NCBI RefSeq assembly: GCF_000012805.1 | Contig: NC_007484.1 | Coordinates: 510,001 to 542,000 of the forward strand | Direction of reading: 5' to 3' | DNA from: Nitrosococcus oceani ATCC 19707 | GTDB lineage: Bacteria > Pseudomonadota > Gammaproteobacteria > Nitrosococcales > Nitrosococcaceae | DNA: 32,000 nt | Part shown: positions 1 to 20,641 of the stretch, piece by piece | Layout of the letters: each line of letters begins with the position of its first letter | Numbering within the stretch: position 1 is the first letter of the stretch | Notes under the pieces: generated by a model | Database searches by the model: none | What the model was told of the DNA's origin: nothing | What the model saw: only the letters and a program-made list of their open reading frames with translations | Translations under genes and position numbers: made by a program

Positions 1-2
1 CT

Positions 3-305
3 TACGCCATTGTGGCGCTTGTTGGATTATCTGTATTGGGGTTGTCATTGCTCGCGGCAGCTTTCTGGCGTCCTCCCTCCAGGCCATTGCGGGCGCCCGA
101 TTCTTGGAAGAAATACCGTTTCGGTTTTGCCACTTATTCGCTTATTTTTGTGGCCTTCGATATGGAAATGATTTTTATGTATCCCTGGGCGGTAGTCTTT
201 GCAGAGATTGGATTGAAAGCGTTTCTCGATATGCTGGTATTTATTGCGTTGCTGGGCGGTGGCATTACTTATGTGTGGGGAATGGGCGGATTGAAATGGG
301 AGTGA
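3..305 (+). CDS. nuoA: Complex I subunit A (NuoA/ND3)-like; 5' end probably beyond the window edge
   Basis: The frame is open from base 3 (track ORF 12..305). It has TM helices and the family motif FDMEMIFMYPWA. The stop TGA 303-305 overlaps the next start (ATG 296 or ATG 305). Confidence 0.8.
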   Translation, partial: YAIVALVGLSVLGLSLLAAAFWRPPSRPLRAPDSWKKYRFGFATYSLIFVAFDMEMIFMYPWAVVFAEIGLKAFLDMLVFIALLGGGITYVWGMGGLKWE

Positions 306-1228
306 TGACAAGCGTATTAGCCACCGTGGCCGCGCTCTTGGCGGGGGTAGGGCTTACGGCCTGGCTGGAGCCTAAGTGGCTTGGCGCTAACGGCGAGCGG
401 GGACCGGCAAGTCCCGTGAAAATTGCCGCCGATGTGCGGTTAACTCAGCCCGATCCCTGGCTCTATTACGCCGGGCCGGTAATCGCGTGTATGGGCGTGA
501 GCTGGGCCATGGTCTGCATTCCCTTTAGTCCTTCCCTGGTAGGCAATGATGTCAATATCGGGCTTTTTTATTTCATCGTTGTGGTTGATTTCGTAGTGCT
601 GGGTATTGCCTTGGGCGGATGGGGTGCCAACACCCCCGATAGTGTTGAATCCTGTTATCGGGCTATCGCCCAATTGATTGCCTATGTGATTCCCCTCGGG
701 CTAGCGATTATCGGTCCGATTATGATGGCCCGCTCCTTATCGACGGTCCACATTGTTGAGGCGCAGGCCAACGCCCAGCTTTGGTATCTCATCCCCCAGC
801 CAATTGGTTTTATTCTTTATGTGATATCGGGATTGATGCAAGTGTATCGGGCGCCTTTTCTGGAACCCTTTGCCGATCCCATTGGCCGGGGTGTGCTAAG
901 CGTGTTTGGCGGCTGGAAGGGTTTGCTCTGGCGGCTCGCCTTGTCAGGGGTGCTTTTTGTGGTCGCCGCCATGGGAGCAGTCATTTTTCTCGGCGGCTAT
1001 AGCGGGCCGTTCCTGCCAGGGCCGGTTTGGATGGTCATCAAGACCGTGGGGCTAATGGTCCTCATGATTTGGTTGGGGCGCCAGGTGCGGTTATTGAGCG
1101 TGGCTGAAATGCTCAGCCTGTCATGGAAAGTACTTATCCCGGTAGGTTTATTGAACGTGCTGCTAGTGGGCGGATTAATTTTGTTGGGTGCCGGTCAAGA
1201 CCCCTTTTCTCCTGGAGGAGGCCACTGA
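296..1228 (+). CDS. nuoH: Divergent complex I subunit H (NuoH/ND1)-like polytopic membrane protein
   Basis: Track ORF 104..1228. The 5' part overlaps nuoA, so I start at ATG 296 (alternative ATG 305 in a TGATG overlap). ND1-like blocks are present (GWGAN..YRAIAQLIAY, IPQPIGFILY, YRAPF), but many family-conserved acidic residues are replaced. Confidence 0.7.
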   Translation: MGVMTSVLATVAALLAGVGLTAWLEPKWLGANGERGPASPVKIAADVRLTQPDPWLYYAGPVIACMGVSWAMVCIPFSPSLVGNDVNIGLFYFIVVVDFVVLGIALGGWGANTPDSVESCYRAIAQLIAYVIPLGLAIIGPIMMARSLSTVHIVEAQANAQLWYLIPQPIGFILYVISGLMQVYRAPFLEPFADPIGRGVLSVFGGWKGLLWRLALSGVLFVVAAMGAVIFLGGYSGPFLPGPVWMVIKTVGLMVLMIWLGRQVRLLSVAEMLSLSWKVLIPVGLLNVLLVGGLILLGAGQDPFSPGGGH

Positions 1229-1229
1229 G

Positions 1230-2027
1230 ATGGAAGTGAGTCCGGTGCTGCAATGGGCCGCCTTTGGGATCTTCGCTTTTATCAGCATCGCCGGAGCCTT
1301 GGGCATGGCTACGACCATGAGCATGTTTCGCAGCGGTATTTTTCTGATGGCTTCATTTATTGGGGTGGCGGGATTGTTTATTTTATTGCTTGCGGACTTG
1401 CTGGCCCTGTTGCAGATCATGATGTACATCGGCGGTATGTTGGTGATGATTCTGTTCATGCTGCTGTTCAGCGGCGATCCCGGCGGTGGGATGATGAGCA
1501 CTCATATGCGGCTTCGGGGTCCTGAGTGGTTCTTTAGCCTGGGTTTGGCCCGCTCCCCATCCGGAACGGATGGGAATAACGCTAATGATTCCTCGGATAA
1601 GGAAGAAGACCAGCGTGATCAGGCCAGGGACAGCCACCAAGAGGAAGGGGAGAAGGAGGAGAGTAACGACATGTCCATGTTTACCCCTGCTAAGCGGGGG
1701 GCCGCTGGGCTGGCGCTAGGTATCGGCGTTTTACTGATCGCGCTGCTGCTGTGGCGGCCCCATTGGGCGGTGGTGGCGCAAATGCCGGATCCGGACTCAC
1801 CCCGCCGTATTGGCCACTTGCTCATGGATAAATACATGATCGCTTTTGAAGGCGCGGGGCTGCTTATTCTACTGGGTATTTTCGGCGCCGTTCTGCTGCA
1901 ACGCCCTGGCAAATATCCTGACTCGGCCCACCGGGAGGAACTCCGGGCCGCGGTAGAGGATGCGCCCGCCCCGGTGAAAACCGATCCACTTAAACCCTTA
2001 GGGCTGGATCGCGATAGGGAAAAATAA
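1230..2027 (+). CDS. nuoJ: Complex I subunit J (NuoJ/ND6)-like with a long acidic low-complexity insertion
   Basis: ATG 1230 lies 1 nt after the nuoH stop, with the SD 'ggaggagg' at 1214-1221. The N-terminal TM1-3 region looks like NuoJ (FGIFAFISIAGALGM...LLQIMMYIGGMLVMILF). The insertion 'NNANDSSDKEEDQRDQARDSHQEEGEKEESND' precedes the last TM segments. Confidence 0.75.
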   Translation: MEVSPVLQWAAFGIFAFISIAGALGMATTMSMFRSGIFLMASFIGVAGLFILLLADLLALLQIMMYIGGMLVMILFMLLFSGDPGGGMMSTHMRLRGPEWFFSLGLARSPSGTDGNNANDSSDKEEDQRDQARDSHQEEGEKEESNDMSMFTPAKRGAAGLALGIGVLLIALLLWRPHWAVVAQMPDPDSPRRIGHLLMDKYMIAFEGAGLLILLGIFGAVLLQRPGKYPDSAHREELRAAVEDAPAPVKTDPLKPLGLDRDREK

Positions 2028-2055
2028 AATTTATGCTGTCCTTAAAGATGGCCCC

Positions 2056-2370
2056 ATGATCGCTATTCCCTTAACCGCCTTCTTGCTGGTGGCGGCTGTT
2101 CTTTTCGCCATTGGGCTATATGCCGTCATCGCCCAACGCACCGCGGTGATGGTGCTGATGGGAATTGAGCTGCTGCTGAATGCGACGGGATTGAACCTGG
2201 TGGCTTTTTGGCGGTTCACCGCTCCCCAGGATTATTCCGGCCAAATTTTCGTGATCATTATCGTGACCATTGGGGCGATCGAAATGGCCATCGGGTTGGC
2301 AATCATGATGTTGTTATATCGCCGCCACCAGACCGTGCAGGTGGATAAATATAAAGAGTTAAAGGGATGA
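2056..2370 (+). CDS. nuoK: Complex I subunit K (NuoK/ND4L)
   Basis: A 104-aa protein with three TM helices. Both family-typical membrane glutamates are present (GIELLLNA and GAIEMAIGLA). Confidence 0.85.
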   Translation: MIAIPLTAFLLVAAVLFAIGLYAVIAQRTAVMVLMGIELLLNATGLNLVAFWRFTAPQDYSGQIFVIIIVTIGAIEMAIGLAIMMLLYRRHQTVQVDKYKELKG

Positions 2371-2421
2371 GGGTGTTACTACTGGCAGTGCCCCTAGCTC
2401 CCTTGGCCATGGCGGCGCTGA

Positions 2422-4068
2422 TTGCCAGGCCGTGGGAGTGGACTTGCCGTCGGAGGGATTTTTATCTCCGCCCTGGCGGTGTTGCCCTTATCCGGCGCCG
2501 ATGCCGAGGTGGCGTTGACCTGGTTCACGGTGGGCCCCTTTGAGCTGACGGTGAGTCTGGCGGCCGATAGGCTGGGTTGGTGGATGGCCACGCTGGTTGC
2601 CTGGATTGCATTGCCCGTGGCCGTTTATTCGGTACCCTACATGGCCGATGAGGCGGGCCGCCAGCGGTTTTTTGCGTGGCTGAGCTTTTTTGTAGGGATG
2701 ATGCTCGCCTTGGTGCTGAGTCAGTCATTGCTATTGCTATTTATCGCCTGGGAAGGAGTAGGGCTGGCCTCTTTTGTATTAATTGGCCAGCACCACGGGC
2801 AAGCCAAGGCCCGGCAAGCCGCCTTCAAGGCCCTGCTCATGACCCGGCTGGGGGACATGGGCCTACTGCTTGGTTGGCTGTGGATGCTGATGATCACCGG
2901 CACCACCCAGTTACCGCCTTTTTTTCAGCAGGTGGAGGATGGAGCTTTTACCGCTGGGACGCTCAATCTGCTGGCTCTGTTGTTTTTTCTGGCGGCTATA
3001 GGAAAAAGCGCTCAATTACCCTTGACTGCTTGGCTTCCCGAAGCGATGGCGGCTCCGACGCCGGTATCAGCCTTGATTCATTCGGCCACCATGGCCGCCG
3101 CTGGGGTGTTTTTGGTGTTGCGGTTATTTCCCTTGTTTGAGCATGCCCCCTTAGCGTTAGCAGTGGTGTTGTGGGTTGGCGCCTTCACCGCCCTGATCGC
3201 CGCCTTGGTGGCGACCGCCCAATATGATTTAAAGCGCCTTCTTGCCTGGTCCACCGTCTCCCAGCTGGGCGAAATGATGCTTGCACTGGGGCTCGGAGGG
3301 CCATTGGGCGCCGCTTTTCATTTGACCGTCCATGCCACTTTCAAATCGGCGCTTTTTCTCAGCGTTGGCGCCCTGGAGCGGGCCACCGGCACCCGGGATC
3401 TGCGTCAGCTTGGCGGGTTGGGAAAGCGCTTGCCGTGGACGGCGGGCGCCTTTATTGCTTCTGCCTTGGCGTTGGCGGGCTTTCCCTTGTTATCGGGCTA
3501 TTGGAGTGAGGAGGAACTGCTAAGGCAGGCCGTTTCCGTCCATACCGCTTGGGGAGTTTTCATGCTGGTGCTGATTTTACTGGCTGGAATCTATATAGGC
3601 CGGGCCGCTATGGCCACTTTCGGGTTAGCGCCCCAGGCGGTCATGCCAGCGAATCGGCGAGAATCGGCGCCCCTAGTTGGACCTGCCCTGGGTTTGGCCC
3701 TTGCCGCCGCCGGGTTGGGAGCGATCATTAAAACCCCCATCGAGTCCATGTTGTCCTTCGAGGCCGGCAGCGCGACCCTGACTGGGGCCTGGACCCTGAG
3801 TGCCATTCTGGCAAGCCTGGTGGGATTAGGAGTGGGCGCATGGCGGGTTTACCACTGGGGGCCAGCGCCCGCCCTGGGCGGTTGGCCTAGCAGGCTGGTC
3901 GTTATCATCCATGGTTTAGTCTCTGGGGTTGCCCGTGCTGCTAAAGCCGGCGCGCTGGTGCTGGTCTGGTTGGAACGGGGCTTTGATGGAGCAGCGCGAT
4001 CTTTCCCCACTGGAATAGATAGAGTTAGTCGCCAATCGGATAGGAGGCCAATTGGAACAGGGCCTTGA
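2422..4068 (+). CDS. nuoL: Complex I subunit L (NuoL/ND5)-like, main body; the gene appears broken at both ends by frame changes
   Basis: Antiporter-like motifs are present: FIAWEGVGLASFVLIG (TM5 Glu), AAIGKSAQLPLTAWLPEAMAAPTPVSALIHSATM (TM7 Lys) and HATFKSALFL (TM12 Lys). The track start is TTG 2422. A better-looking start (ATG 2367, ATGA overlap with the nuoK stop, hydrophobic MRVLLLAVPLAPLAMAALIA) is in another frame. Confidence 0.8.
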   Translation: MPGRGSGLAVGGIFISALAVLPLSGADAEVALTWFTVGPFELTVSLAADRLGWWMATLVAWIALPVAVYSVPYMADEAGRQRFFAWLSFFVGMMLALVLSQSLLLLFIAWEGVGLASFVLIGQHHGQAKARQAAFKALLMTRLGDMGLLLGWLWMLMITGTTQLPPFFQQVEDGAFTAGTLNLLALLFFLAAIGKSAQLPLTAWLPEAMAAPTPVSALIHSATMAAAGVFLVLRLFPLFEHAPLALAVVLWVGAFTALIAALVATAQYDLKRLLAWSTVSQLGEMMLALGLGGPLGAAFHLTVHATFKSALFLSVGALERATGTRDLRQLGGLGKRLPWTAGAFIASALALAGFPLLSGYWSEEELLRQAVSVHTAWGVFMLVLILLAGIYIGRAAMATFGLAPQAVMPANRRESAPLVGPALGLALAAAGLGAIIKTPIESMLSFEAGSATLTGAWTLSAILASLVGLGVGAWRVYHWGPAPALGGWPSRLVVIIHGLVSGVARAAKAGALVLVWLERGFDGAARSFPTGIDRVSRQSDRRPIGTGP

Positions 4069-4387
4069 TAAAACAGGACGATTTTTTTGCCGGGGAGCGT
4101 TGTTTTTGGCCCAGGGTGTTCTGTTGTATGAAAGATTTTTCAATGCCGGCGCCCACGCTAGCAGCGGCGCGATTATGACGGTTGGTCGGGCAACGGCAAG
4201 CTTTGAGTCGCAAATATGGGGGGTGGGTCATGACCGCCTGGCGGGGTTTTTCCAGTGGGCCGGGCAAAAGCTGCGCCTATCGCAGAGCGGCAAACTTTAT
4301 CTTTATACCTTGAGCGTGTTTGCTTTTATTCTGCTGATAGGGGTAGGGATTGTCATGGTTTGGCTATTGCTGGAAAGAGGCTATTAA
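4052..4387 (+). CDS. NuoL C-terminal segment (lateral-helix / last-TM-like) encoded in the +1 frame relative to the nuoL body
   Basis: Track ORF of 111 aa. It ends '...AGQKLRLSQSGKLYLYTLSVFAFILLIGVGIVMVW', which resembles the NuoL C-terminal 'lr.lQtG.l..Y + final TM' block. It overlaps the end of the main nuoL frame by 17 nt. Confidence 0.55.
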   Translation: MEQGLDKTGRFFCRGALFLAQGVLLYERFFNAGAHASSGAIMTVGRATASFESQIWGVGHDRLAGFFQWAGQKLRLSQSGKLYLYTLSVFAFILLIGVGIVMVWLLLERGY

Positions 4388-4409
4388 ACCGCAAGGTATC
4401 CTATTTACT

Positions 4410-5885
4410 ATGCTGAGCCTGACTATTTTTTTACCTTTAATCACGGCCTTGGTAGTGTTAATCCTGCCCCGTTCACGCCCCTTTCTGATTCGCTGGGTCG
4501 CATTGGCGGGTGCGGTGCTGACCTTTGCCGCCGCCTTGGGATTACTGGCTGGGTTTGATACCGGCAGGCCAGGATTGCAGTGGCGCACTAGGCTGCCTTG
4601 GATCCCTCCCGTCAATGCGGCCTACGATGTAGGCGTCAATGGCTTTTCGCTGGCGCTGATTTTACTGACAGCATGGTTGCTGGTCACCGTGATGGTCTAT
4701 GTGCTGCGAAATGACAATCGCCCCAAGGGCCATGCCGCGCTTTTCCTGCTAATGGCAACCGGTTTGCTGGGGGTCTTCGCCGCCCAGGATTTGCTGCTGT
4801 TTTATCTTTTCTTTGAAGTGGGCCTAGTGCCCATGTATTTCATTATCGGCATCTGGGGCCACGACAATCGCCGCTACGCCGCCATGAAATTTTTTCTTTA
4901 TACCCGGGCCGCCAGTTTGGCGATGCTGCTAAGCTTTTTGGCGTTGTATCTGTTGATGGAGCCCCATACCTTTTCCCTGCCTGCTATCATTGAGGCTCAA
5001 CCCCTGGCCCAGGCGGGCGGGGCTGGCGGCTGGGTCATGCTCGGGATGCTCATCGGCTTTGGCGTGAAACTGCCCACCGTGCCCCTTCATAACTGGCTGC
5101 CCGATGCCCACGTGGAAGCGCCCACCGAAGGCAGCGTGATGCTTGCTGGCATTCAACTCAAGATGGGCGCTTATGGCCTGCTCGCCATCATGCTGCCCAT
5201 TATGCCGCAGGTGGTGTTTGATTATGCTTGGCTTTTGCTGGCGCTGGCCTTGGTTTCCCTCGTCTATGGGTCACTAGCCGCGCTAGCCCAGCAGGATTTA
5301 AAGCGTCTTATTGCTTATACCTCCATCAATCATATGGGATATATCATGTTGGCGGGGGCCTTAGCTGTGTTGGCGCCCACCGCCGGCACCCAAGAGTTAG
5401 CCTTAAATGGCGGTATTTATCAGATTATCAGCCATGGCTTGTTGACGGGGGGGATGTTTTTCGCTGTGGGAATGATTCAAGATCAAACGGGGACGCGGGA
5501 GATGGGCCGGCTTAGGGGACTCTCCCGGCAAGCTTCCGCTTTTTCCTTGCTGACCGGCGTGCTGGTGTTCGGCTCCCTAGGATTACCCGGGCTTTCGGGA
5601 TTTATTGGAGAATTTCAAGTATTAGGAGCGGCCGTTTCCTGGAATCTCTGGATCGCCGGGGTGGCCCTGGTGGCGTTAGTGATCACCACGGGCTTATATC
5701 TGCGTATCGTGATCTCGGTGCTATGGGGCGAGCCCCGTACGGGGACAGGGGCTATGAAGGAGCCGGAGGGACGAAAGCTGGCGGTCATGGGCAGTTTAGT
5801 AATGTTATCCCTGTGGCTGGGGCTGTTGCCGGCAGGGTTGCTGGGGGTGATTCAAGAGACCGTCCGGAGTTTGGCGGCAGGATGA
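4410..5885 (+). CDS. nuoM: Complex I subunit M (NuoM/ND4)
   Basis: ATG 4410 gives the typical N-terminus MLSLTIFLPLITALVVL. Motifs are LFYLFFEVGLVPMYFIIGIWG, GFGVKLPTVPLHNWLPDAHVEAPT and GIQLKMGAYG. The track start at 4350 is an upstream extension. Confidence 0.9.
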   Translation: MLSLTIFLPLITALVVLILPRSRPFLIRWVALAGAVLTFAAALGLLAGFDTGRPGLQWRTRLPWIPPVNAAYDVGVNGFSLALILLTAWLLVTVMVYVLRNDNRPKGHAALFLLMATGLLGVFAAQDLLLFYLFFEVGLVPMYFIIGIWGHDNRRYAAMKFFLYTRAASLAMLLSFLALYLLMEPHTFSLPAIIEAQPLAQAGGAGGWVMLGMLIGFGVKLPTVPLHNWLPDAHVEAPTEGSVMLAGIQLKMGAYGLLAIMLPIMPQVVFDYAWLLLALALVSLVYGSLAALAQQDLKRLIAYTSINHMGYIMLAGALAVLAPTAGTQELALNGGIYQIISHGLLTGGMFFAVGMIQDQTGTREMGRLRGLSRQASAFSLLTGVLVFGSLGLPGLSGFIGEFQVLGAAVSWNLWIAGVALVALVITTGLYLRIVISVLWGEPRTGTGAMKEPEGRKLAVMGSLVMLSLWLGLLPAGLLGVIQETVRSLAAG

Positions 5886-7294
5886 AACTTTGGGCGCTCA
5901 TCCCCGAGCTTATCCTGGGGGGGTCATGCTTGCTATTGGTCCCCCTTGCCGGCTGGGTGCGGGGTAAATGGCGGATGCTGCCAGGGCTAATGGCCCTGCT
6001 GGGTCTGCTTGCCTGCCTGGTGGCGACTGCCAGAATGCTTCCCTGGCAGCCGGTGACGGCCTTTCACGGTAGTTACGCCATTGATGGTTTCGCCCATTTT
6101 TTCAAGCTAATTATTGAATTAAGCAGTCTGCTTACGGTGGCGCTGCTCATGATATATTTCCGCGGCCACTCCCAGCAGGCCCCGGCAGCGGTCGCGGTGA
6201 TTTTCGCCACTTTGGGCGCCGTGGGGTTGGCTTCTAGCCGGGATCTGGGGTTAATCGTGCTTTTCTTTCAGATGATGAGCATGGCGGGCTATGTGCTGGC
6301 CGCCCTTGAGCGTCACCACCGGCCTGCCTTAGAAGCCGCCCTTAAATATTTTATTTATGCGGGGGTCACCTTAGCCACCATGGCCTATGGGCTGACTTTC
6401 TTTTACGGCTTGACGGGTAGTCTTAATTTGCAAGTGATTGGATCGGATTTGCAGGACGCTGATGGGCTGTGGGTGACCTTGGCCCTGATTTTGATTCTCG
6501 TTGGTTATGGCTTTGAGATTACGTTGGCGCCCTTTCATGTGTGGGCTCCGGATGTATTTTCCGGCGCGACGGCGCCAGTGGCCGGCTTTCTTGCCGTTGT
6601 GCCCAAAGCGGCTGGCATAGCGGCCCTGCTGCGTTTTATGCTGGAAGGAATGCCCGGTGAAATGGTGGGATGGCCCCTCTGGCTCGCTATAGGCGCCGCC
6701 ATGACCATGACGCTGGGTAATGTCGTCGCCCTGGGGCAGAATCATCTTAAACGCTTGCTGGCCTGGTCGAGCATCGCCCACGCCGGATATCTTCTCATGG
6801 CGGTAGCCGTGGCTGAACGGGCGCCGGAGGCTTTGGCGGCCATTGGTTATTACTTCGCTGCTTATTTGTTTATGACCCTGGGCGCATTTGCAGTGGGCGC
6901 TCATTTGGAACGCGCGGCAGGCAGCGATTCGTATGAAGCGCTTCGTGGCTTAAGTCAACGCGCGCCTATGGGAGCCGGGGTGTTGGCCCTATGCCTGTTG
7001 TCGCTGGCAGGCATCCCGCCCCTGGCCGGTTTTGCCGGCAAAGTTTTTTTGCTAGAAGCAGTGCTTGACGGGGAAATGATATGGCTTGCCGTTATCGCGG
7101 CGATTAATATGACCCTGGCGCTCTATTATTATGTCAAGATTATTGCCGAGATATATCTTTACTCTCCTGTCCGCACTTATTCTATGCCTACAGGAGGCGG
7201 TTACCTTATTGTTTACAGCGGGTGTGTGTTGGGCATTCTCGGCTTGGGGATCTGGCCTGGACCGTTGCTGGTATTGCTTGAATTAATGGGATAA
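5882..7294 (+). CDS. nuoN: Complex I subunit N (NuoN/ND2)-like
   Basis: ATG 5882 overlaps the nuoM stop (ATGA). Motifs are LAPFHVWAPDVFSGATAPVAGFLAVVPKAAG, LKRLLAWSSIAHAGY and GIPPLAGFAGKVFLL. The track start at 5723 lies inside nuoM. Confidence 0.85.
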   Translation: MKLWALIPELILGGSCLLLVPLAGWVRGKWRMLPGLMALLGLLACLVATARMLPWQPVTAFHGSYAIDGFAHFFKLIIELSSLLTVALLMIYFRGHSQQAPAAVAVIFATLGAVGLASSRDLGLIVLFFQMMSMAGYVLAALERHHRPALEAALKYFIYAGVTLATMAYGLTFFYGLTGSLNLQVIGSDLQDADGLWVTLALILILVGYGFEITLAPFHVWAPDVFSGATAPVAGFLAVVPKAAGIAALLRFMLEGMPGEMVGWPLWLAIGAAMTMTLGNVVALGQNHLKRLLAWSSIAHAGYLLMAVAVAERAPEALAAIGYYFAAYLFMTLGAFAVGAHLERAAGSDSYEALRGLSQRAPMGAGVLALCLLSLAGIPPLAGFAGKVFLLEAVLDGEMIWLAVIAAINMTLALYYYVKIIAEIYLYSPVRTYSMPTGGGYLIVYSGCVLGILGLGIWPGPLLVLLELMG

Positions 7295-7370
7295 ATAATT
7301 CCTTGTATAATCGCTGCTAAGCTAACCGTGCTATCCCCACCCATTGCATGTCTGAAGCGTTCAACTCACA

Positions 7371-7397
7371 AACCGGAGACATCCTTGTCTACCGGTT
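7371..7397. terminator. Imperfect hairpin between convergent nuoN and the DUF1328 gene (likely bidirectional terminator)
   Basis: 'aaccggagaca-tcct-tgtctaccggtt' lies between the two stop codons. It is conserved in repeat copy B. Confidence 0.55.
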
Positions 7398-7418
7398 CTG
7401 AGTGAAGCCATATCCGCT

Positions 7419-7589
7419 CTAGAGAGGAGGCCGCCCCCGCCGTCCTAAAAGCAAGAAAACCACAAATAAAATAAGCCCTACCACAAATAGAATCCACGCA
7501 ATGTGGGTAGCCACTCCTGCCAATCCTGTAAAGCCAAAGAGCGCTGCTATAAGCGCGATAATCAAAAAAGTTACTGCCCATCCGAACAT
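7419..7589 (-). CDS. DUF1328 (UPF0391, YtjA-like) small membrane protein, 56 aa
   Basis: My own translation is [56 protein letters not shown]. The SD 'gaggagg' lies 6-7 nt upstream. It is below the track's 60-aa cutoff; track ORF 7366..7581 is the wrong frame. Confidence 0.85.
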
Positions 7590-7626
7590 TTTTTCCTCCT
7601 CGTGTATTCTATATTTACGAAATAAA

Positions 7627-7633
7627 AGTATAG
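7627..7633 (-). promoter_or_regulatory. Candidate sigma-S-type -10 element (CTATACT) for the DUF1328 gene
   Basis: The minus strand reads 'gaaCTATACTttt' about 38 nt upstream of the ATG. It is conserved in copy B. Confidence 0.35.
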
Positions 7634-8192
7634 TTCAAGATTTTTAGAGAGTATAAAATCATAAGAACATACGTTTAAAAATATAAGCGGTATTTAACTT
7701 TTACCTTCGCCTTTCAATAATACTTTTTGTTCGCTATAGGATTTATACTTTTGGAAAAATTCTGAGTGTATGGAGATCCCAGAGACAGGAATCACTATCA
7801 GGCGCGGGTTACGGGGTTTTTCTGAAATAACCGTGGCTGCGCGTTTATTGCTAGGAAAGGTACTCGCGTGCAAGTCGTCACCAGCTCTGCCATGCTGGCG
7901 AGAGAGAAGAGTTGAATTCTGTCCTCCTCCTTGCTTACTTTGCAAAAGGAGAGAACTGGATTAGGGATTAAAGCTCCTTATAATTGAAAGTAGGCCGTGC
8001 TGCTTAAATAAAGAGGCCAGGACGATCAGATGCGGGAGTATGATTGATTTGTAATATAGCCTTGAATAATATTTTAACGGCCTAACCTAGGATGGAAATT
8101 ATGTGGGCTTTCTCGATAGAATTTTATCAATAACCGAATAGTTATAAATTTCCGGCCAGAGCCTAGCAGGGTAGAATTATTTTTTTGAAAAA

Positions 8193-8220
8193 CTAGATTA
8201 TTACAAAAGCTGTTCTATAG
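8193..8220 (+). promoter_or_regulatory. Candidate promoter of secreted-protein paralog A (-35 TAGATT, 16-nt spacer, -10 TATAGT preceded by C)
   Basis: The block 'actagattattacaaaagctgttctatagt' is conserved with 'actagacaattctagaaatcgttctatagt' upstream of paralog B. Confidence 0.45.
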
Positions 8221-8332
8221 TCTATACAAGGTGCCTGTACTTAGTAGAGTGATTGGCACAAAAATTTCTTATAAAGAAGTGCTCATAAATTTAGCTAAAT
8301 TTTTTGTTAACCTATTTTTTAAGGAGATTAAT

Positions 8333-8800
8333 ATGGTGGCGTCTTTGGATAAAATAAATTTTGATATGCTCGTCAAAATGGCGGTGCTAGTAATGGCAAG
8401 TGCTGCATTGGCGGCGGTTCCCGCTATGAGTTCCGCTCAGACGGGGGCTCAACCCCAGCAACTAGAAGATGTAGAAGCCCTGCTGGATAATGTGGTTCGG
8501 TATGATGGTAAAAAAGTGAGTGTTTCCGGTGAGGTGGAAGAAGTCATTGATGAAAAAGCTTTCATTCTTGAAAGCGGGGGGCTTTTTGAGGATGAAATGG
8601 TAGTCTTGAAACCTGCCGGTAATTTGATGGTTAAGGAAGACTACGAGGTGACTGTGACAGGGACAGTGCGCGCGGTGGCCCTGGTTGATATCGAGCGTGA
8701 ATACGGCTGGGACTTAGATCCCCAGATTAAGATAGAGCTTGAAAATATAGAAGCTTTCCTTATCGCGGATAGCATTGAGATAACCGAGAAGGATGATTGA
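8333..8800 (+). CDS. Secreted protein of unknown function, paralog A (signal peptide, acidic beta-rich domain)
   Basis: ATG 8333 has the SD 'aaggag' 6 nt upstream. The signal peptide is ...ASAALAAVPAMSSAQ. It has clear paralogy with 11701..12225 (blocks FILESGGLF, VDIEREY, EAFLIAD are shared). Confidence 0.8.
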   Translation: MVASLDKINFDMLVKMAVLVMASAALAAVPAMSSAQTGAQPQQLEDVEALLDNVVRYDGKKVSVSGEVEEVIDEKAFILESGGLFEDEMVVLKPAGNLMVKEDYEVTVTGTVRAVALVDIEREYGWDLDPQIKIELENIEAFLIADSIEITEKDD

Positions 8801-8811
8801 TTAAAATAAAA

Positions 8812-8847
8812 AGCCCCATAGCCATGAAAGTGGCTATGGGGCTTTTT
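8812..8847 (+). terminator. Rho-independent terminator
   Basis: A perfect 13-bp stem (agccccatagcca / tggctatggggct), loop 'tgaaag', then TTTT. Confidence 0.85.
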
Positions 8848-8854
8848 ACTTCTC

Positions 8855-9004
8855 GCCGAGATGTATCTTTACTCTCTCCTATCTATATTTACCATGCCCA
8901 CCAGGAGCGGTTACCTTACTGTCTACAGGGGATGTGTGTTGGGAATTCTCGGCTTGGGGATCTGGCCTGGACCGTTGCTGGTATTGCTTGAATTAATGGA
9001 ATAA
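8855..9004 (+). pseudogene. Relic of the last 49 codons of nuoN, with no upstream gene body
   Basis: It translates to AEMYLYSLLSIFTMPTRSGYLTVYRGCVLGILGLGIWPGPLLVLLELME*. The genuine NuoN end is AEIYLYSPVRTYSMPTGGGYLIVYSGCVLGILGLGIWPGPLLVLLELMG*. Both are 150 nt. Confidence 0.8.
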
Positions 9005-9082
9005 ATAATTCCTTGTATAATCGCTGCTAAGCTAACCGTGCTATCTCCTATCTCATTGCATGTCTGAAGCGTCCAACTTACA

Positions 9083-9108
9083 AACCGGAGACATCCTTGT
9101 CTACCGGT
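9083..9108. terminator. Copy of the 7371-7397 hairpin
   Basis: The same 'aaccggagaca..tgtctaccggt' sequence. Confidence 0.5.
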
Positions 9109-9130
9109 CCTGAGCGAAGCCATATCCGCT

Positions 9131-9301
9131 CTAGAGAGGAGGCCGTCCTCGTCGTCCTAAAACCAAGAAAACCACAAATAAAATAATTCCTACCACAAAT
9201 AAAATCCATGCAATCTCTGTCGCTATACCGGCTATCCCAGTGAAACCAAGGAGAGCTGCTACGAGTGCAACAATTAAAAAAGTTACTGCCCATCCGAACA
9301 T
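9131..9301 (-). CDS. DUF1328 (UPF0391, YtjA-like) small membrane protein, second copy, 56 aa
   Basis: My own translation is [56 protein letters not shown]. The SD is 'aggagg'. Track ORF 9078..9293 is the wrong frame. Confidence 0.85.
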
Positions 9302-9339
9302 TTTTTCCTCCTAATGCAATTAGTTAATTATGAAATAAA

Positions 9340-9346
9340 AGTATAG
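9340..9346 (-). promoter_or_regulatory. Candidate sigma-S-type -10 element (CTATACT) for DUF1328 copy 2
   Basis: The minus strand reads 'gaaCTATACTttt', the same as copy A. Confidence 0.35.
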
Positions 9347-9697
9347 TTCAGATTTTTTGGAAGTACATAAGTTTTTAAATATAATCTATTTCAGGCTTGC
9401 GTCCTTATATCATTCCAATAGCGATTTGTACTGTTTTCCGTTAAGATAAATTTTAATATATCTTTCACATAAAGCATCTGTATCAGTACCCGTATTCCGA
9501 TGGGAAGGGACGTGGTTAGTAATATGTCAAGGACGCCAAAGGCCATTCCCATCGTTATTGGTTAGAATTTTAAATTAAGACCTTGGAAGAATTTTCTTTA
9601 GGTATCTAAAATTGATTTAAACCAAATCGCATGTTGGAAGGTAAAAAATAGCTAACTCTAAGAGGCATTAAAATTAGAAAAATTCTGACCGGCAAAC

Positions 9698-9883
9698 TTA
9701 TTGCTCCAGTGCCGTCAACATTATTGCCATCTTTCTGCTTATCGTTGCGTTGTTTGTCCTAGGTACTGACAAAGTGCCATACCAGCCGCTAACTAACGTG
9801 GCTGTGCCACTTACAAAGCCGAATAAAATAAGGGCTACTGAAGAGAGGAGGCGCAGAAAAGTTATAGCTAACCTAATAAGCAT
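9698..9883 (-). CDS. Possible small hydrophobic protein (61 aa), doubtful
   Basis: Track ORF only. It has one or two hydrophobic stretches, no convincing SD and no recognisable family. Confidence 0.25.
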   Translation of the reverse strand: MLIRLAITFLRLLSSVALILFGFVSGTATLVSGWYGTLSVPRTNNATISRKMAIMLTALEQ

Positions 9884-9999
9884 CGAATGGCAGGTATGAC
9901 TAAAACATTTACTTCTATCTATGTATTTAAATACGCGGTCATGCCAGTAATTATTTTTATAGTAGCAACCGCCCTGCAGATATATAGGAGAAAGTCGTT

Positions 10000-10713
10000 A
10001 TGAAGCAATTCAATAAGATGCTCACTAAGTTTACTCCCCTTATACTATTTATTGTCGGCTGCACGCCGCCAGCAGCTAATTTAAAGCCAGCCTCCACAGC
10101 AAATGTGGTGGCGCACTTAGAGGAAGCTGCTGTCAGCCAGGTGAAAGGAGTCCAGGTAATCGTACAGACCGACCAATGGCCCGGTCCCCAGCCCATCCAA
10201 AATGAAGTGACGCCGGTGCGGGTAGTCATCGACAACAAAAGCGAGACGGCGCTGCGCTTGCGTTACAATGATTTCGCCCTCATTGCCGATGACGGCACGC
10301 GCTACGCTGCCTTGCCGTTGTATAGAATTGTGGGCTCTATTCCGGAGCCTGTAATCGACACTGGCTATACGGCGATAACCGAACCCCATTTCGTATACCA
10401 TGCTTTTACAGTTGCCCCGTTCTACGCCAACATCTATCCTGCTATGACGGCTTATCGCGGCACATTTGCTTACGACCCATTCTACTATGATACCTACAAT
10501 GCTTACTGGATAAACATCCCCTTACCGACTCAAGAAATGTTCAAACGGGCATTGCCGGAAGGTGTGCTGGATGTTGGAGGCCGCATTGAAGGCTATCTTT
10601 ATTTCGAACGCGTATCGGATGACCAGTCACGTGTGACCTTCCGGGCCGACTTGAGCAGTGCCCAGAGCAATCGATTTTTTGGGGAAGTCCGGATTCCATT
10701 CAACGTACAGTAA
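10000..10713 (+). CDS. Lipoprotein of unknown function
   Basis: The SD 'aggaga' lies upstream. The signal peptide has the lipobox LFIVG-C. No family recognised. Confidence 0.8.
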   Translation: MKQFNKMLTKFTPLILFIVGCTPPAANLKPASTANVVAHLEEAAVSQVKGVQVIVQTDQWPGPQPIQNEVTPVRVVIDNKSETALRLRYNDFALIADDGTRYAALPLYRIVGSIPEPVIDTGYTAITEPHFVYHAFTVAPFYANIYPAMTAYRGTFAYDPFYYDTYNAYWINIPLPTQEMFKRALPEGVLDVGGRIEGYLYFERVSDDQSRVTFRADLSSAQSNRFFGEVRIPFNVQ

Positions 10714-10820
10714 AACCTCCTTAGAGCCCTTTTGAAACAAAAACGGCAGAGAGAGATTAGGAAAAATAAAAGACCGAAGCCCCACTTCTTTAAAGAAATA
10801 TAGGAAAGTGGAATGTTCTC

Positions 10821-11297
10821 TCACATTCGTGTTTGCCGTCCCTGGCGAACACGTTTGGTAGGCCAATAATCCTTAGGGACCCAATAAGGGCGGGCTCCAT
10901 AACGGCTGTGTACGTCGCTAGCCCAGCGTTGATCAGCCATTGATGGCCAGTGGTCTTTATCAAAGCCGGGGTCGTTTTCAAGGACTTCTTTATTAACTCT
11001 TAATACAAAACACTTCTCATCCGCGTCCAAAGTCAAAGCACTCCAGGGCACGGCAAATAATTTATCTCCCACGCCGAGGATTCCCCCAAAGGATAACACC
11101 GCATAGGCTACGCGGCCTTTAGGTACATCTATCATGATGTCCTTGATTTTACCTAACTCCTCTCCTTCCAGGTTGAATACCTCATTATTTTCCAGAGAGT
11201 TTGCGGTCATGAGGTAGGGACCAGGTCCGCTAGTATTGTCTTCGCCTCCAATGACTCGAGGTTGATCGCTGCCGGGGGTAGTTATAGGGGTATTCAT
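10821..11297 (-). CDS. PRC-barrel domain protein
   Basis: The core 'NLEGEELGKIKDIMIDVPKGRVAYAVLSFGGILGVGDKLFAVPWSAL' is a typical PRC-barrel signature. The SD is 'ggagg'. Confidence 0.85.
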   Translation of the reverse strand: MNTPITTPGSDQPRVIGGEDNTSGPGPYLMTANSLENNEVFNLEGEELGKIKDIMIDVPKGRVAYAVLSFGGILGVGDKLFAVPWSALTLDADEKCFVLRVNKEVLENDPGFDKDHWPSMADQRWASDVHSRYGARPYWVPKDYWPTKRVRQGRQTRM

Positions 11298-11572
11298 AGT
11301 TTTCCTCCAAAGGTTAATAATTTATTTCACGTCTATCACGTGCCTTAATATTTGAAGCAAAAAATATGCCGATAATATTAGCTATCGCGTAAGTGAAATA
11401 AAACAATGACTGAAGCAGGTTTTTCCTTGGCTTAGCTCGCTTCTCTTTTATTTTGTTTCGCAAGCAACCGCACTTTTGTTTGTGTAAAATCTTCTTGGTG
11501 ACGTAATAATTACAAATTATATTTGTACTTAGTATTAAGAAAAAATAATTTCATCTTAAAATATTCTATGAC

Positions 11573-11600
11573 TAGACAATTCTAGAAATCGTTCTATAGT
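11573..11600 (+). promoter_or_regulatory. Candidate promoter of secreted-protein paralog B (-35 TAGACA, 16-nt spacer, -10 TATAGT preceded by C)
   Basis: Conserved with 8193-8220 (see there). Confidence 0.45.
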
Positions 11601-11700
11601 TTAGTTTAGAGCGATTTTGATGAAAGAGTTCTGTTTATAGTTACGCATGGTAGAGAGACGTTCCACAAACTAAACTTTATGACAAGTAAAGGAGACAAAT

Positions 11701-12225
11701 ATGAGCAAACTTTTTTGTAAATTAAGCATAAGCACTATGACTAAAATGGCTATAGCCGCTATGGTGAGCGCCGCGCTTATGTCGCTACCTGCCATGGGTG
11801 TCGCCCAGACGACTGCCTCGCCCTCTTCAGGTGTTGACCCATCCTCTCAGATGGGCGGGCAGCAAGCAGGTGGGCAATCCCAGACGGTAGAAGACGTGGA
11901 AGAGCTACTGGATAATATAGAACGCTACGATGGTCAGAAAGTTACTGTTTCCGGTGAAGTAGAAGAAAGGATTGATAAGAGATCCTTTATCCTTGAAAGT
12001 GGTGGGCTTTTCAATGATGAGATAGTTGTGGTGATGCCAAAAGGCAATCTTAATGTTCAGGAAGACGACGAGGTTGCGGTTACCGGGAAGGTTCGCGCGG
12101 TAAAATTTGTTGACATTGAGCGTGAATACAATTGGGTTCTGAATGAAGAGATAAAGAGTGAAATTGAGGATGTGGAGGCTTTTCTTATTGCAGACCATGT
12201 TGAAATAACAAAACAGGACGATTAA
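11701..12225 (+). CDS. Secreted protein of unknown function, paralog B
   Basis: The SD is 'aaggag'. It has a signal peptide (...LPAMGVAQ) and the mature part aligns with 8333..8800 over its whole length. Confidence 0.85.
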   Translation: MSKLFCKLSISTMTKMAIAAMVSAALMSLPAMGVAQTTASPSSGVDPSSQMGGQQAGGQSQTVEDVEELLDNIERYDGQKVTVSGEVEERIDKRSFILESGGLFNDEIVVVMPKGNLNVQEDDEVAVTGKVRAVKFVDIEREYNWVLNEEIKSEIEDVEAFLIADHVEITKQDD

Positions 12226-12239
12226 TTTCCTTAAAAAAT

Positions 12240-12273
12240 CCCCCTGGCGATCCTAACTGGGATCCTCAGGGGG
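12240..12273 (+). terminator. Stem-loop downstream of paralog B (terminator-like, weak T tract)
   Basis: 'ccccctggcgatcc-taact-gggatcctcaggggg', with two paired segments. Confidence 0.45.
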
Positions 12274-12442
12274 AAGATTGTAAATTTCCTGTTTTATCTA
12301 TTCTTTTGAATAGACTATTTATTTCCAACCTTCTCTATCTCTAAATTAATTGTTTTACAAAATACTTAGACTGTTCCCTATTCCTTAGCTATTATCCTTA
12401 AGGTAAATGTTTTTCCTACTTAAAAAGTATTGTGGGGCAATC

Positions 12443-13846
12443 ATGGAAAAGAAAAGATGTCTTTATAAAAATTATTGGGTAGTGATAAGCTCAGCCTTAA
12501 TTTTATCTGGGAGTAGCGGCGTTCTATTAGCGGCTGAACAAGCAACGAGCTATAAAAAAGTCGCTGTAGAAAAAAGTTTCGATGAAGTGAAGCAACAAGA
12601 TGTCGCCGATAAACCCAACGTCATGAAGCGTCATAAATCCCTCTTGGAGCGGCGCTATGAGCTTCAAGACCAGCCTTCCAAGACGGTTACCATGTCGGCG
12701 GGAAAACCTGTGCAGGAAGGAATTCGGGTAAAGCTTCCGCAGGGAATTACCTGGGAACAGCTTTCTGAGATGAGCGCCCAGGAAATTAAGCAGCGGGATC
12801 TATTTCCCAAAGGCTTTCGGCCACTTCCCCATCCTAAGCATAGTGTAGGGGGTCAAGTTTATCCCCCCAACCAAATCGAGGCTATCCAAAAAGCGGAAAG
12901 CCGGGATCTTTCTCGCTTCGATGTGGAATTCGATCTACCCGATCGCTTTTTGCCTGAGTTTCCTCCGCCTATCTATTTGACGACACATCCAGCACTAGGA
13001 GATGTCTCCCAGGGCGAGGTGCTGACCATCAAAAATTACTATCGGCTTTTGAATGGAATCATTACTCCTGTTCAAATGGAAGGTTTAAGGTTATTACTTA
13101 CTCCTTTCCCGCAGCAAGAATTTAACCAGACCGAGGATAGGAAAGTTAAGGAGCCCACGTTAGGGGTTACCTGCCTCGATTGTCATGTCAACGGGCACAC
13201 CAATGCTGCTTTCCATCTTAATCCCGATACTAGGCCCCAGAAAAATCGGTTTCGGTTGGATACGGTAAGCCTGCGAGGCATGTACAACCAGCAGATCCAT
13301 GGCTCTAAGCGTTCCCTGCGATCGGTGGAGGATTTTACTCAATTCGAGCAGCGAACTGCCTATTTTGACGGGGATCATGTGATTGCAGCAAAAAAAGGGG
13401 TTCATCTGCCTAATCGTACTGAGCAAGTTTCAATGATGGCTCAGATGCAAAATATGTTCGATTTTCCACCGGCGCCAAAATTAGATGCAACGGGCCGTTT
13501 GATGTCCGAAAAGGCGTCGGAGGAAGAACTGCGTGGCGAAAATATTTTTTTTGGTAAAGGCAAATGTAGCACTTGCCATATACCGCCAGCCTTCTTGGAT
13601 CATCAGATGCATGATCTCCATTTAGAACGTTTCTACGAGCCGGAAATGATCAATAGCCAGTACAATGTGGCCAATGGACCGATTAAAACTTTTACCCTGC
13701 GGGGCATCAAGGACTCACCCCCTTATCTTGCCGACGGTCGGCTCTTGACTTTAGCTGACACGGTAGAATTTTTCAATTTGGTTTTGCAATTGGATCTAAC
13801 CTCCCAAGAGAAAGAAGATTTATTATCCTATCTCTATACACTGTAG
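12443..13846 (+). CDS. Di-haem c-type cytochrome, cytochrome-c-peroxidase/MauG-like C-terminal half with a long N-terminal extension
   Basis: Two CXXCH motifs are present: CLDCH at ~aa 256-260 and CSTCH at ~aa 387-391 of the 479-aa track ORF. The second sits in the CCP-like context 'GENIFFGKGKCSTCHIPPAF'. A signal peptide follows ATG 12443 (MEKKR...LLAAEQ). The track start at 12407 is also possible. Confidence 0.75.
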   Translation: MEKKRCLYKNYWVVISSALILSGSSGVLLAAEQATSYKKVAVEKSFDEVKQQDVADKPNVMKRHKSLLERRYELQDQPSKTVTMSAGKPVQEGIRVKLPQGITWEQLSEMSAQEIKQRDLFPKGFRPLPHPKHSVGGQVYPPNQIEAIQKAESRDLSRFDVEFDLPDRFLPEFPPPIYLTTHPALGDVSQGEVLTIKNYYRLLNGIITPVQMEGLRLLLTPFPQQEFNQTEDRKVKEPTLGVTCLDCHVNGHTNAAFHLNPDTRPQKNRFRLDTVSLRGMYNQQIHGSKRSLRSVEDFTQFEQRTAYFDGDHVIAAKKGVHLPNRTEQVSMMAQMQNMFDFPPAPKLDATGRLMSEKASEEELRGENIFFGKGKCSTCHIPPAFLDHQMHDLHLERFYEPEMINSQYNVANGPIKTFTLRGIKDSPPYLADGRLLTLADTVEFFNLVLQLDLTSQEKEDLLSYLYTL

Positions 13847-14055
13847 CAGTGAACAGTAATTAAAAGTCAAAAAAATAGCCCGGCGAGAGGCCAGGCTTAA
13901 AGAAGAGAGAGTCAAGAATCAGTAATTATTTTATACTCTGAGGATGGACTATTCTATAAGGATATTCCCCTACATATAAAATTTGACGATTTTATTCAAA
14001 TTTTCTTTTTTTAAAGTCATCAGAAAAAATAAGCAACCATAACTTATGAGTAATT

Positions 14056-14064
14056 CCCCCCCCC
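14056..14064 (+). repeat. Homopolymeric C9 tract in AT-rich DNA, ~160 nt upstream of the AsmA-family gene
   Basis: Read directly as 'aattcccccccccTccc'. Confidence 0.9.
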
Positions 14065-14222
14065 TCCCAGTCTATTCAACTAGAAGTCATAACCATCCTC
14101 CTTTATGGAGATTCTATTAAAAAACAGGAAGGGAGTTCTAGAGAAATAAAGGCTGGCAAGGGTTTTAAATACTAAAGGTTTATTCCAGCGATTTGCCATT
14201 TTTAAATCAATGAATAGAATTT

Positions 14223-16220: not shown

Positions 16221-16810
16221 CCCCCCGATAAGGCGCGCAGGCGGCGGGCGATGCTTCTCAAGCGTGTTTGGAAGGGGAGTAGCACGGGGCTGGCATTTCC
16301 TCCTCTAGCTGTGTGACTGCGTGGCCTACCCCAGGTTTAGTTATGGGACATTTAAATTTTCCTTTCACTCAATTTTAGAACTAGGGAAGCATGGTGAAGT
16401 AATTTTTCAGAGTAAAGCGTTTGCTGGAGTTGCATGAGAGCAGAGGTTTCTTAGGGAGCAGTTAACAAGAGGAAAAATATGCCAGTATTGTGCCTGTTCG
16501 ATTACTGAGGTTTACTAATTCTTTTGGTATAAGAATGAATAGGGCAGGCGGGATAATTGCCGTATCGTCCATAGGGTTACTGCAAGGGTACCCAAGAGCA
16601 GAAGAGGTGCGTCGGTAAAAATGTTCATGGGTACATCTGAACCCTCTATCTTGTAGCACGCTTATTTTGTATAGTAATTGTATCTTTGCGCTGCCTCTTA
16701 ATTTTGGGCCTTGGTCTGCTGAAGCTTTAGGCAATGTATTATTGCTATAGATACCGGTTAGCGGACCGCGCTGCTAAGAATGTACCGGCAGAAAAAAATA
16801 AACATGATGA

Positions 16811-16841
16811 AACAGCCCAATGCTGTCCACATTGGGCTGTT
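16811..16841 (-). terminator. Rho-independent terminator of the small lipoprotein gene
   Basis: A perfect 12-bp stem (aacagcccaatg / cattgggctgtt) with a 7-nt loop. On the minus strand it is followed by a T-rich run. Confidence 0.7.
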
Positions 16842-16936
16842 TGTTCTATCTATCTATCTTCACTCACCCTTGGCAGCATCGTGAACGCTTATTGGGATGA
16901 GAATTCCATAATATTGATTAAATTACCTTTTATTCG

Positions 16937-20609: not shown

Positions 20610-20641
20610 TAATAAAGGGAACGCTGCATTTAGCAACGATA

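Follow-up and report, generated by a model that had tools for sequence, protein, structure and literature searches.

A third nuo cluster in Nitrosococcus oceani

The 32,000-nucleotide (nt) stretch of the Nitrosococcus oceani ATCC 19707 genome analysed here (the window, to which all coordinates without a further label refer) opens with a cluster of genes for the membrane arm of respiratory complex I, Noc_0474-0481 in the 2013 numbering. Listing of open reading frames (ORFs) and Pfam scans of the window assign these genes to seven families in the order nuoA-H-J-K-L-M-N, all on the + strand between positions 1 and 7294. An earlier note on this DNA had described such an operon as devoid of peripheral-arm genes, and both Pfam and tblastn bear this out. 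Pfam detects no peripheral-arm family in any window ORF, and E. coli NuoB, NuoCD, NuoE, NuoF, NuoG and NuoI, used as tblastn queries, have no match in the window, in the 110-kb contig of GCA_007990675.1 (NBRC assembly, L001) that supplied the upstream flank, or in the related locus of another Nitrosococcus (L015). What could a membrane arm do without its head? The features on which the following argument draws are listed below, with lengths in amino acids (aa) and transmembrane helices abbreviated TM.

1..305 (Pfam ORF 12-305), + strand: nuoA (Noc_0474), 5' end cut by the window edge; Oxidored_q4, E = 3e-19
305..1228, + strand: nuoH, short form, 307 aa; NADHdh, E = 2e-44
1230..2027, + strand: nuoJ with a family-specific insertion; Oxidored_q3
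1476..1685, + strand: insertion in the NuoJ TM3-TM4 loop, aa 83-152, DPGG...DMSMFT; from the alignment
2056..2370, + strand: nuoK; Oxidored_q2
2367-4387, + strand: nuoL, overall extent in three frames
2367..2421, + strand: nuoL start remnant, ~18-20 codons from the start codon on, in a different frame from the body
2422..4068, + strand: nuoL body, Noc_0478, 548 aa as annotated; Proton_antipo_N and Proton_antipo_M
4015..4022, + strand: tandem duplication of ATAG (4 nt) in nuoL, ATAGATAG; read directly from the sequence
4052..4387, + strand: nuoL C-terminal fragment, Noc_0479, 111 aa, spanning the final part of the lateral helix through to the last TM helix
4410..5885, + strand: nuoM; Proton_antipo_M
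5882..7294, + strand: nuoN; Proton_antipo_M

The genes are packed as tightly as the earlier note had claimed, and each of the junctions it quoted is present. The nuoA TGA (303-305) overlaps the nuoH ATG (305-307), nuoH ends at 1228 ahead of a nuoJ ATG at 1230, the nuoK TGA (2368-2370) overlaps an ATG at 2367-2369, and nuoM and nuoN are joined by an ATGA at 5882-5885. The ATG at 2367 calls for a correction: its overlap with the nuoK stop is real, but it opens only ~20 NuoL-like codons before the frame is lost. Likewise, the seven membrane-subunit products foreseen in that note hold as seven gene families by Pfam, but nuoL is not one intact ORF. NuoH of the window is 100% identical to NuoH of N. 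oceani ATCC 19707.

Position 1 of the window corresponds to position 9697 of L001, in which the true ATG of nuoA is seen at 9684, 12 nt before the window begins. Upstream of nuoA lies a 235-nt AT-rich spacer, followed by a divergently transcribed PRC-barrel/LysM gene (L001 8672-9448). Because nothing but this spacer and a divergent gene precedes it, the cluster is a complete transcription unit that begins at nuoA. Farther upstream, an SDR-family dehydrogenase, a thiamine pyrophosphate (TPP) enzyme and an MR/MLE-family gene stand among genes unrelated to complex I; no nuoB, nuoC, nuoD or nuoI occurs within the ~10 kb upstream that L001 provides.

Neither is the cluster the only complex I of this organism. 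Two complete nuo operons have been published for the genome (PMC4453560, PMC3772326), described by Spero et al. in 2015 as two complete complex I isozymes of clades B and E (PMC4453560), and Noc_0474-0481 is thus a third, accessory nuo cluster of N. oceani. Stein et al. listed it in 2013 as "NuoAHJKLLMN (C I-membrane arm)", in the same table as a complete NuoA-N set (Noc2552-2565), and placed Noc0474-0481 in 'forward Complex I' (PMC3772326). The double L of their label arises because two nuoL ORFs are annotated. In their experiments, an ammonium pulse left nuoH, nuoJ and both nuoL ORFs with transcript levels 9-12-fold below those of starved cells and 7-10-fold below those of control cells (PMC3772326).

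The arrangement itself is therefore already known, and has been annotated in N. oceani since 2013; the function of the headless cluster was previously unexplained. Partial nuoAHJKLMN operons have been published as 'marine adaptation genes' of Salinispora, Streptomyces and Kocuria (PMC3314556, PMC6676996, PMC6002675) and for Bdellovibrionota (PMC13147790). Marinobacter atlanticus has a complex-I-like cassette of seven genes that splits its copper-resistance cluster and is expressed together with copA (PMC8233155). Our literature search found no paper linking nuoJ to methionine-rich features and copper, and none naming nuoJ among the matches listed for nuoJ with copper, silver and genomic islands. 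What is new here are the frameshifts in nuoL, the family-wide loss of the quinone interface, a convergence of evidence on copper and the evidence for movement of the cassette between lineages; none of the papers on nuoAHJKLMN operons reports a lost quinone interface, a metal-binding NuoJ loop or a broken nuoL.

A mobile cassette that has lost the quinone interface

Related loci were gathered by three look-ups of NuoH proteins 63-65% identical to that of the window, by a scan of species-representative genomes with NuoH (7 loci, N. oceani itself not among them), by a metagenome scan seeded with the NuoJ family alignment (58 loci) and by a plasmid search. The earlier note had suggested a survey of other genomes for the A-H-J-K-L-M-N order, and we found this order, with tight spacing, at ~65 related loci (L005-L010, L012-L015, L017-L074) from at least six phyla, wherever a locus is long enough to judge. 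Carriers include Rhodanobacteraceae, Bacteroidetes, Melioribacteraceae, Ignavibacteriales, Terriglobales/Acidobacteria, Alphaproteobacteria and Deinococcus. Two plasmids of Alphaproteobacteria, one mobilizable from Methylobacterium and one conjugative from Rhodopseudomonas (L078, L079), carry the genes in the same order. The plasmid copies and the spread across phyla indicate that the cassette moves between lineages.

With the E. coli queries named above, tblastn detects no NuoB, NuoCD, NuoE, NuoF, NuoG or NuoI within 10 kb of the related loci except at L006, and its peripheral-arm matches fall solely in a separate canonical operon of L006 and in the canonical locus L011. L006, a Bacteroidetes metagenome-assembled genome (MAG), holds a canonical ...G-H-I-J-K-L-M-N operon (1-8935) that ends 0.7 kb upstream of the cassette (9672-16770). 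The two sets stand in tandem and are clearly paralogous, with a PEBP-family gene between them. No universally attached eighth gene was found across the loci, whose immediate neighbours differ from one to the next. The cassette is thus widespread and horizontally mobile, and is never accompanied by quinone-reducing or NADH-oxidising subunits of its own. A second, more divergent cassette subgroup keeps the same order (L067-L072; identity to the window proteins 45-48% for NuoA, 41-42% for NuoN and <40% for NuoH), and some of its loci adjoin CusA-like pumps. Several loci from MFD-series MAGs show split nuo genes (NuoJ in L009, NuoL in L006, several in L010), presumably assembly frameshift errors; these were excluded from residue counts.

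How does the family differ from a membrane arm that serves a quinone-reducing enzyme? We aligned its members with the E. coli K-12 subunits (L016) and with the canonical subunits of L006. Relative to its E. coli counterpart, NuoH of the window carries E157V, D213L, E216F, E228V, E241L and R286G, E220 is deleted, and R291, R293 and D295 are lost. These changes are shared by all members, position E228 being a hydrophobic residue or glycine across the family, and the same replacements appear against the sequence of the solved E. coli structure. All members also share a 14-aa deletion in the NuoH TM1-2 loop and a 9-aa deletion that removes the TM1-2 'PFESGID' loop of NuoA. NuoH retains E36 and R148, and has a family motif of its own, YRAPFLEPFAD.

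The charged residues of the membrane interior are, by comparison, largely intact. All members keep NuoA D79 and E81 (E. coli numbering; family motif FDMEMIFMYPW), NuoJ Y59, G61 and V65, NuoK E36 and E72, NuoM E144, K234, K265, H241, H322, H348 and E407, NuoL E144, K229, H254 and K342, and NuoN K158, K247, K395 and E154. NuoL H334 differs in one of the eight aligned members, as does H338, and both are kept in N. oceani. Two exchanges alter the pattern: K399E in NuoL of most members, N. oceani included, renders the TM12 residue NuoM-like, and the family-wide E133Q and K217E of NuoN swap the TM5/TM7 charge pair. All the signature motifs, namely YRAPFLEPFAD, FDMEMIFMYPW and, in NuoJ, TTMSMFRSG and DPGG...MSM.T, occur in the window proteins.

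The NuoH and NuoA elements that are gone line the quinone cavity, form the start of the E-channel and contact the peripheral arm; those that are kept make up the central ion-translocation axis. Loss of the interface with retention of the axis argues against an arm that serves NuoBCDI, and for redox-free ion translocation. The earlier note had offered two options, a redox-module-less, Mrp-like ion-translocating module or a membrane arm that docks onto an unknown or distantly encoded partner. The former is the better of the two, given the absence of Q-module genes, the loss of contact elements and the retention of most axis residues; the latter is disfavoured by the missing interface motifs.

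A further family trait lies in NuoJ, whose insertion between TM3 and TM4 is bounded by 'DPGGxMM..M' and 'M.DMSM.T'. In 48 distinct metagenomic copies this loop measures 40-175 aa and consists of 12.2% Met, 9.6% His, 17.4% Asp plus Glu and 0% Cys, with frequent MDH-type repeats. Several representatives of clusters at 50% identity (P0123, P0141, P0148, P0149, P0150 and P0179) harbour one to six copies of the Pfam heavy-metal-binding domain HMBD (PF19335) within the loop, with E down to 4.5e-89. Methionine also accumulates inside the membrane. NuoJ has 15 family-conserved Met residues that are non-Met in E. coli (10.4% Met vs 3.3%) and NuoA has five (5.8% vs 2.1%), while NuoK of the family has Met at E. 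coli positions 30, 33 and 73, next to E36 and E72. The family methionines flank the retained NuoA/J/K carboxylates and NuoJ Y59. No Met enrichment was found in NuoH, NuoL, NuoM or NuoN. The N. oceani copy does carry the transmembrane signatures of the family, these methionines among them.

On which side of the membrane would the loop lie? In mitochondrial complex I, the NDUFA9 C-terminal loop and the loop between transmembrane helices (TMH) 1 and 2 of ND3 are on the matrix side, equivalent to the bacterial cytoplasmic side, where the peripheral arm would sit. The homologous TMH3-4 loop of ND6 has been placed beside both (PMC9977279).

The neighbourhoods of the cassette point to metals as well. 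For 36 non-redundant loci with a flank of 3 kb or more, we sought within 10 kb a set of strict markers: CopA-type ATPase, CopZ/HMA, CueR-like MerR, multicopper oxidase, CopB, CusF, CusA-like RND pump, DUF411, DUF4396 and DUF1775. At least one of these copper or heavy-metal markers occurs at 20 of the 36 loci, and multicopper oxidase genes at 8 of the 36. At several further loci the neighbours include CusRS-like regulators or a c-type cytochrome associated with cop genes. Both plasmids have a DUF305 gene close to the cassette, on that of Rhodopseudomonas 135 nt upstream of nuoA; within 15 kb the latter also encodes DmeF, two metal-sensing repressors and a CusA/CzcA pump. A CBB3-type cytochrome c of ~150-190 aa is found in Ignavibacteriales, Bacteroidetes and Rhodanobacteraceae, less than 1 kb from the cassette at five loci (L005 2378-2797, L008 16984-18229, L009 17446-18000, L010 16848-17375, L028 16208-16621) and at a greater distance in L014 and L029. 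With the L014 protein, whose gene follows copA-copB, it shares 43-48% identity.

Two frameshifts in nuoL

Intact NuoL homologues measure 619-652 aa. In the sister species N. watsonii, NuoL is in one piece of 652 aa and 83% identical to the N. oceani body. Compared with N. watsonii, by way of its NuoL protein, N. oceani has a 20-nt deletion between 2420 and 2422 that throws the body into another frame. The frame-3 translation from the ATG at 2367, MRVLLLAVPLAPLAMAALIA, matches the N termini of N. watsonii NuoL (MTALLLLAPFAPLFMAALIA) and of the L012 homologue, and this frame stops at 2543. The first possible start of the body is a TTG at 2422, with no obvious ribosome-binding site before it. A second lesion, the ATAG duplication at 4015-4022, shifts the frame again, and the last 111 aa become a separate ORF at 4052-4387; removal of one ATAG in silico restores a single ORF of 653 codons over 2422-4387. 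The C-terminal fragment shares 72% identity with N. watsonii NuoL over residues 541-648 of the latter. An AGGAGG at 4041-4046 precedes its TTG (4052) by 5 nt, and from the sequence this piece may be translated separately and assemble with the truncated NuoL; just as well, the cluster may be at an early stage of turning into pseudogenes.

Neither N. watsonii nor any other homologue has either frameshift. Sequencing error was considered and rejected: the NBRC assembly L001 has the very same sequence, two independent Logan assemblies (L003 and L004) agree with it around the first lesion, and the ATCC 19707 annotation likewise splits nuoL into Noc0478 and Noc0479. The remaining six genes are intact, and the ratio of non-synonymous to synonymous substitution rates (dN/dS) against the other Nitrosococcus (L015) is 0.06-0.17 for nuoA, nuoH and nuoJ. 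Intact partners and low dN/dS indicate that the damage to nuoL is recent on the scale of the divergence from L015. The N. oceani copy is probably impaired; whether it can no longer form a working complex we regard as roughly evenly balanced.

The region around the second lesion (3960-4100) also contains a repeat. The motif 'LERxxDxxxRxFxxG' occurs twice in N. oceani NuoL (~3970-4014 and ~4052-4096) vs once in N. watsonii, and repeated ER..D units are seen in other NuoL proteins of the family. Because these repeats differ among members, the length of the lateral helix varies by their gain and loss.

Candidate function and surroundings

We propose that the cassette is a redox-free exporter of Cu(I)/Ag(I) or another cation, derived from complex I and driven by the proton-motive force (pmf), a reading to which we assign about an even chance. 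The broader claim within it, redox-free ion translocation by the seven subunits, merits greater confidence than that; the narrower one, Cu(I)/H+ antiport, merits somewhat less and is advanced tentatively. According to this model, the seven subunits would form a stand-alone complex, a secondary transporter akin to the Mrp antiporters. Protons would enter through NuoL, NuoM and NuoN, and a relay of charge and conformational changes along the central axis, running in the reverse sense of respiratory complex I, would drive a cation out via the NuoA/J/K(/H) end. In most of the family the exported cation would be Cu(I) or Ag(I), gathered at the cytoplasmic face by the Met/His-rich, in some cases HMBD-bearing, NuoJ loop and then handed along the methionines beside the former E-channel carboxylates. 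As read from the sequences, the cassette might then be the first transporter of soft metals (Cu(I)/Ag(I)) to derive from complex I/Mrp machinery, its E-channel turned into a methionine-lined metal path; here, too, our confidence stays a little short of even.

Several observations weigh against this proposal. The case for Cu(I)/Ag(I) transport is built from sequence and gene context, and it is by homology that the NuoJ loop is placed on the cytoplasmic side. The canonical set used for the residue comparisons comprises two sequences per subunit. No strict metal marker accompanies 16 of the 36 loci, and the binomial tail for the observed enrichment, 3e-17 if the background is 5%, takes that background from presumed gene numbers rather than from control loci (the estimated chance rate for a 14-kb flank is a few percent). 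In the 500 nt upstream of nuoA, no CueR/MerR-type dyad is consistently shared across loci. The metal neighbourhood could, moreover, reflect co-travel on mobile islands instead of a shared function, and it is through its published description that the Marinobacter cassette may be joined to the nuoAHJKLMN family. N. oceani itself is a poor exemplar: its NuoJ loop is acidic, with two His, no HMBD and flanking Met clusters only; no metal genes surround its cluster in the 32-kb window or the 10 kb upstream; and with a broken nuoL the cluster may be without any function.

Could the last of these points be the whole story for N. oceani? On that account its cluster is a decaying relic, formerly functional and still transcribed by inertia, as two nuoL frameshifts identical in independent assemblies and absent from homologues would suggest, along with the lack of an RBS-like sequence before TTG 2422, the degenerate NuoJ loop and the distance from any metal genes. 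Six intact genes, dN/dS of 0.06-0.17 and a coherent, ~10-fold transcript response of all eight annotated ORFs to ammonium (PMC3772326) speak otherwise; the C-terminal fragment, with its AGGAGG-N5-TTG, could be made separately, and a NuoL split within the lateral helix might still assemble. We regard a relic as possible but, on balance, doubtful. Less probable still, and in our judgement unlikely, is a function in coping with salt or alkalinity, as an accessory proton pump or a generic antiporter of the Mrp kind that exchanges Na+ (or K+) for H+, in which copper has no special role. This was the function proposed for the actinomycete 'marine adaptation genes' (PMC3314556, PMC6002675), and it suits a marine host, a window free of metal genes, NuoJ loops that are acidic rather than Met/His-rich in N. 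oceani and also in L015, and the retained residues of the antiporter axis. The Met/His loops, HMBD copies, NuoA/J/K methionines and copper neighbourhoods are, however, unexpected for a Na+ carrier, and many hosts of the cassette are soil or freshwater Acidobacteria, Ignavibacteriales and Methylobacterium.

The two remaining explanations would supply the arm with a head. It might borrow NuoB/C/D/I(EFG) from a complete operon and so constitute a complex I isoform; complete operons do exist in the same genome, the cassette directly follows a canonical nuo operon in L006, and NuoH E36 and R148 are kept. This is nevertheless very improbable, as the NuoH TM1-2 loop is shortened, the TM5-6 loop carboxylates, E157 and R291/R293/D295 are gone, and the NuoA 'PFESGID' loop is deleted; in addition, the enlarged NuoJ loop would lie beside the ND3 TMH1-2 loop region, the expected site of the peripheral arm, and the cassette travels alone on plasmids. 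A redox-driven pump with a non-homologous, copper-linked head, such as a multicopper oxidase or a c-type cytochrome, was speculated on by the Marinobacter authors (PMC8233155). The CBB3-type cytochrome c genes within 1 kb at L005, L008, L009, L010 and L028 and the multicopper oxidase genes at 8 of 36 loci would accord with it, and yet there is no universal partner gene and the seven subunits have no cofactor-binding motifs. The site of action of multicopper oxidases and cytochromes c is the periplasm, whereas by homology the remodelled face of the cassette looks onto the cytoplasm; we give such a head hardly any credence.

The proposed exporter is a variant within the complex I/Mrp superfamily. 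It has all seven core membrane subunits of complex I in nuo order minus B-G and I, with fully canonical key residues in NuoM and a retained NuoL lateral helix. It departs from complex I by the absence of the Q- and N-modules, the loss of NuoH TM1-2/TM5-6 features and E-channel carboxylates, the missing NuoA loop motif, K399E in NuoL, E133Q and K217E in NuoN, the large metal-binding-type loop of NuoJ in the family, and the Met enrichment of NuoA, NuoJ and NuoK. With Mrp (CPA3) it shares redox-free NuoL/M/N-like and NuoK-like subunits (Proton_antipo_M three times, Oxidored_q2 once) and the same working model, in which antiporter-like proton flow would drive a cation through the small-subunit end. 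No MrpE, MrpF, MrpG or MrpB-domain Pfam family is found in the cluster or the window ORFs, however; the cassette has NuoH, NuoA and NuoJ, and three antiporter-like subunits instead of two, and is not a member of the Mrp family.

The published nuoAHJKLMN operons agree with the cassette in content and order, in being accessory to a complete NADH dehydrogenase and in showing evidence of horizontal transfer, the N. oceani entry being the present locus (PMC3772326); the actinobacterial and Bdellovibrionota clusters are likened to it by published gene content and order, not by clade. The authors of those papers took them for pumps of protons or sodium, or assigned them to 'forward complex I'. The Marinobacter atlanticus cassette resembles ours in its seven co-located nuo-like genes flanked by copA copies, its co-expression with copper genes and the reliance of its host on another NADH dehydrogenase, but it is annotated as nuoADHJKL plus a hypothetical gene, and its authors proposed that energy is drawn from copper redox reactions (PMC8233155). 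Soft-metal exporters, namely CusA with its methionine relay, P1B-ATPases, CusB with HMBD, and CDF/ZIP proteins with His-rich loops, have in common with the cassette Met/His ligands of the Cu(I)/Ag(I) type, the same HMBD and similar neighbourhoods. Their transporter cores are not homologous to it, and the resemblance is confined to ligand chemistry and context.

The central unsolved problem of complex I is the coupling of the quinone site to three antiporter-like subunits far away from it. A headless arm that is under purifying selection and distributed over several phyla would allow this coupling to be studied in reverse, from an ion gradient alone and without a quinone site. If the link to copper is true, the cassette represents a new class of pmf-driven metal exporter on mobile resistance islands and plasmids, and the labels 'marine adaptation' and 'forward complex I' need revising. 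The ammonia monooxygenase of N. oceani is understood to need copper, and a copper exporter lowered by ammonium would suit the physiology of this organism, a speculative thought given that nuoL is broken in its copy.

Scans for promoters and terminators around the cluster returned nothing informative, and the window contains no tRNA genes and no Rfam family matches. The idea of a foreign GC island was dropped: at 55-58% GC, the cluster resembles the gene-dense parts of the window at 22-25 kb and 27-32 kb (~50-56%). Directly after the nuo cluster, at 7300-21000, follows a block of 38-44% GC that may be acquired DNA, and in which most ORFs are without a Pfam family. Within it lie genes for a PRC-barrel protein (10821-11297, - strand), an AsmA-like protein (14223-16220), a LysM protein (17266-18141, - strand) and an AI-2E-family transporter (18860-19939). 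PRC-barrel proteins are encoded on both sides of the N. oceani nuo cluster (L001 8672-9448; window 10821-11297); the upstream PRC/LysM gene is kept in the other Nitrosococcus (L015 7777-8844), there with faint EF-hand matches. Towards the end of the window, a PIN7-domain gene (26833-27438) stands just upstream of an IS605-family TnpB (27627-28979) with HTH_OrfB_IS605, OrfB_IS605 and a Cas12f1-like TNB domain.

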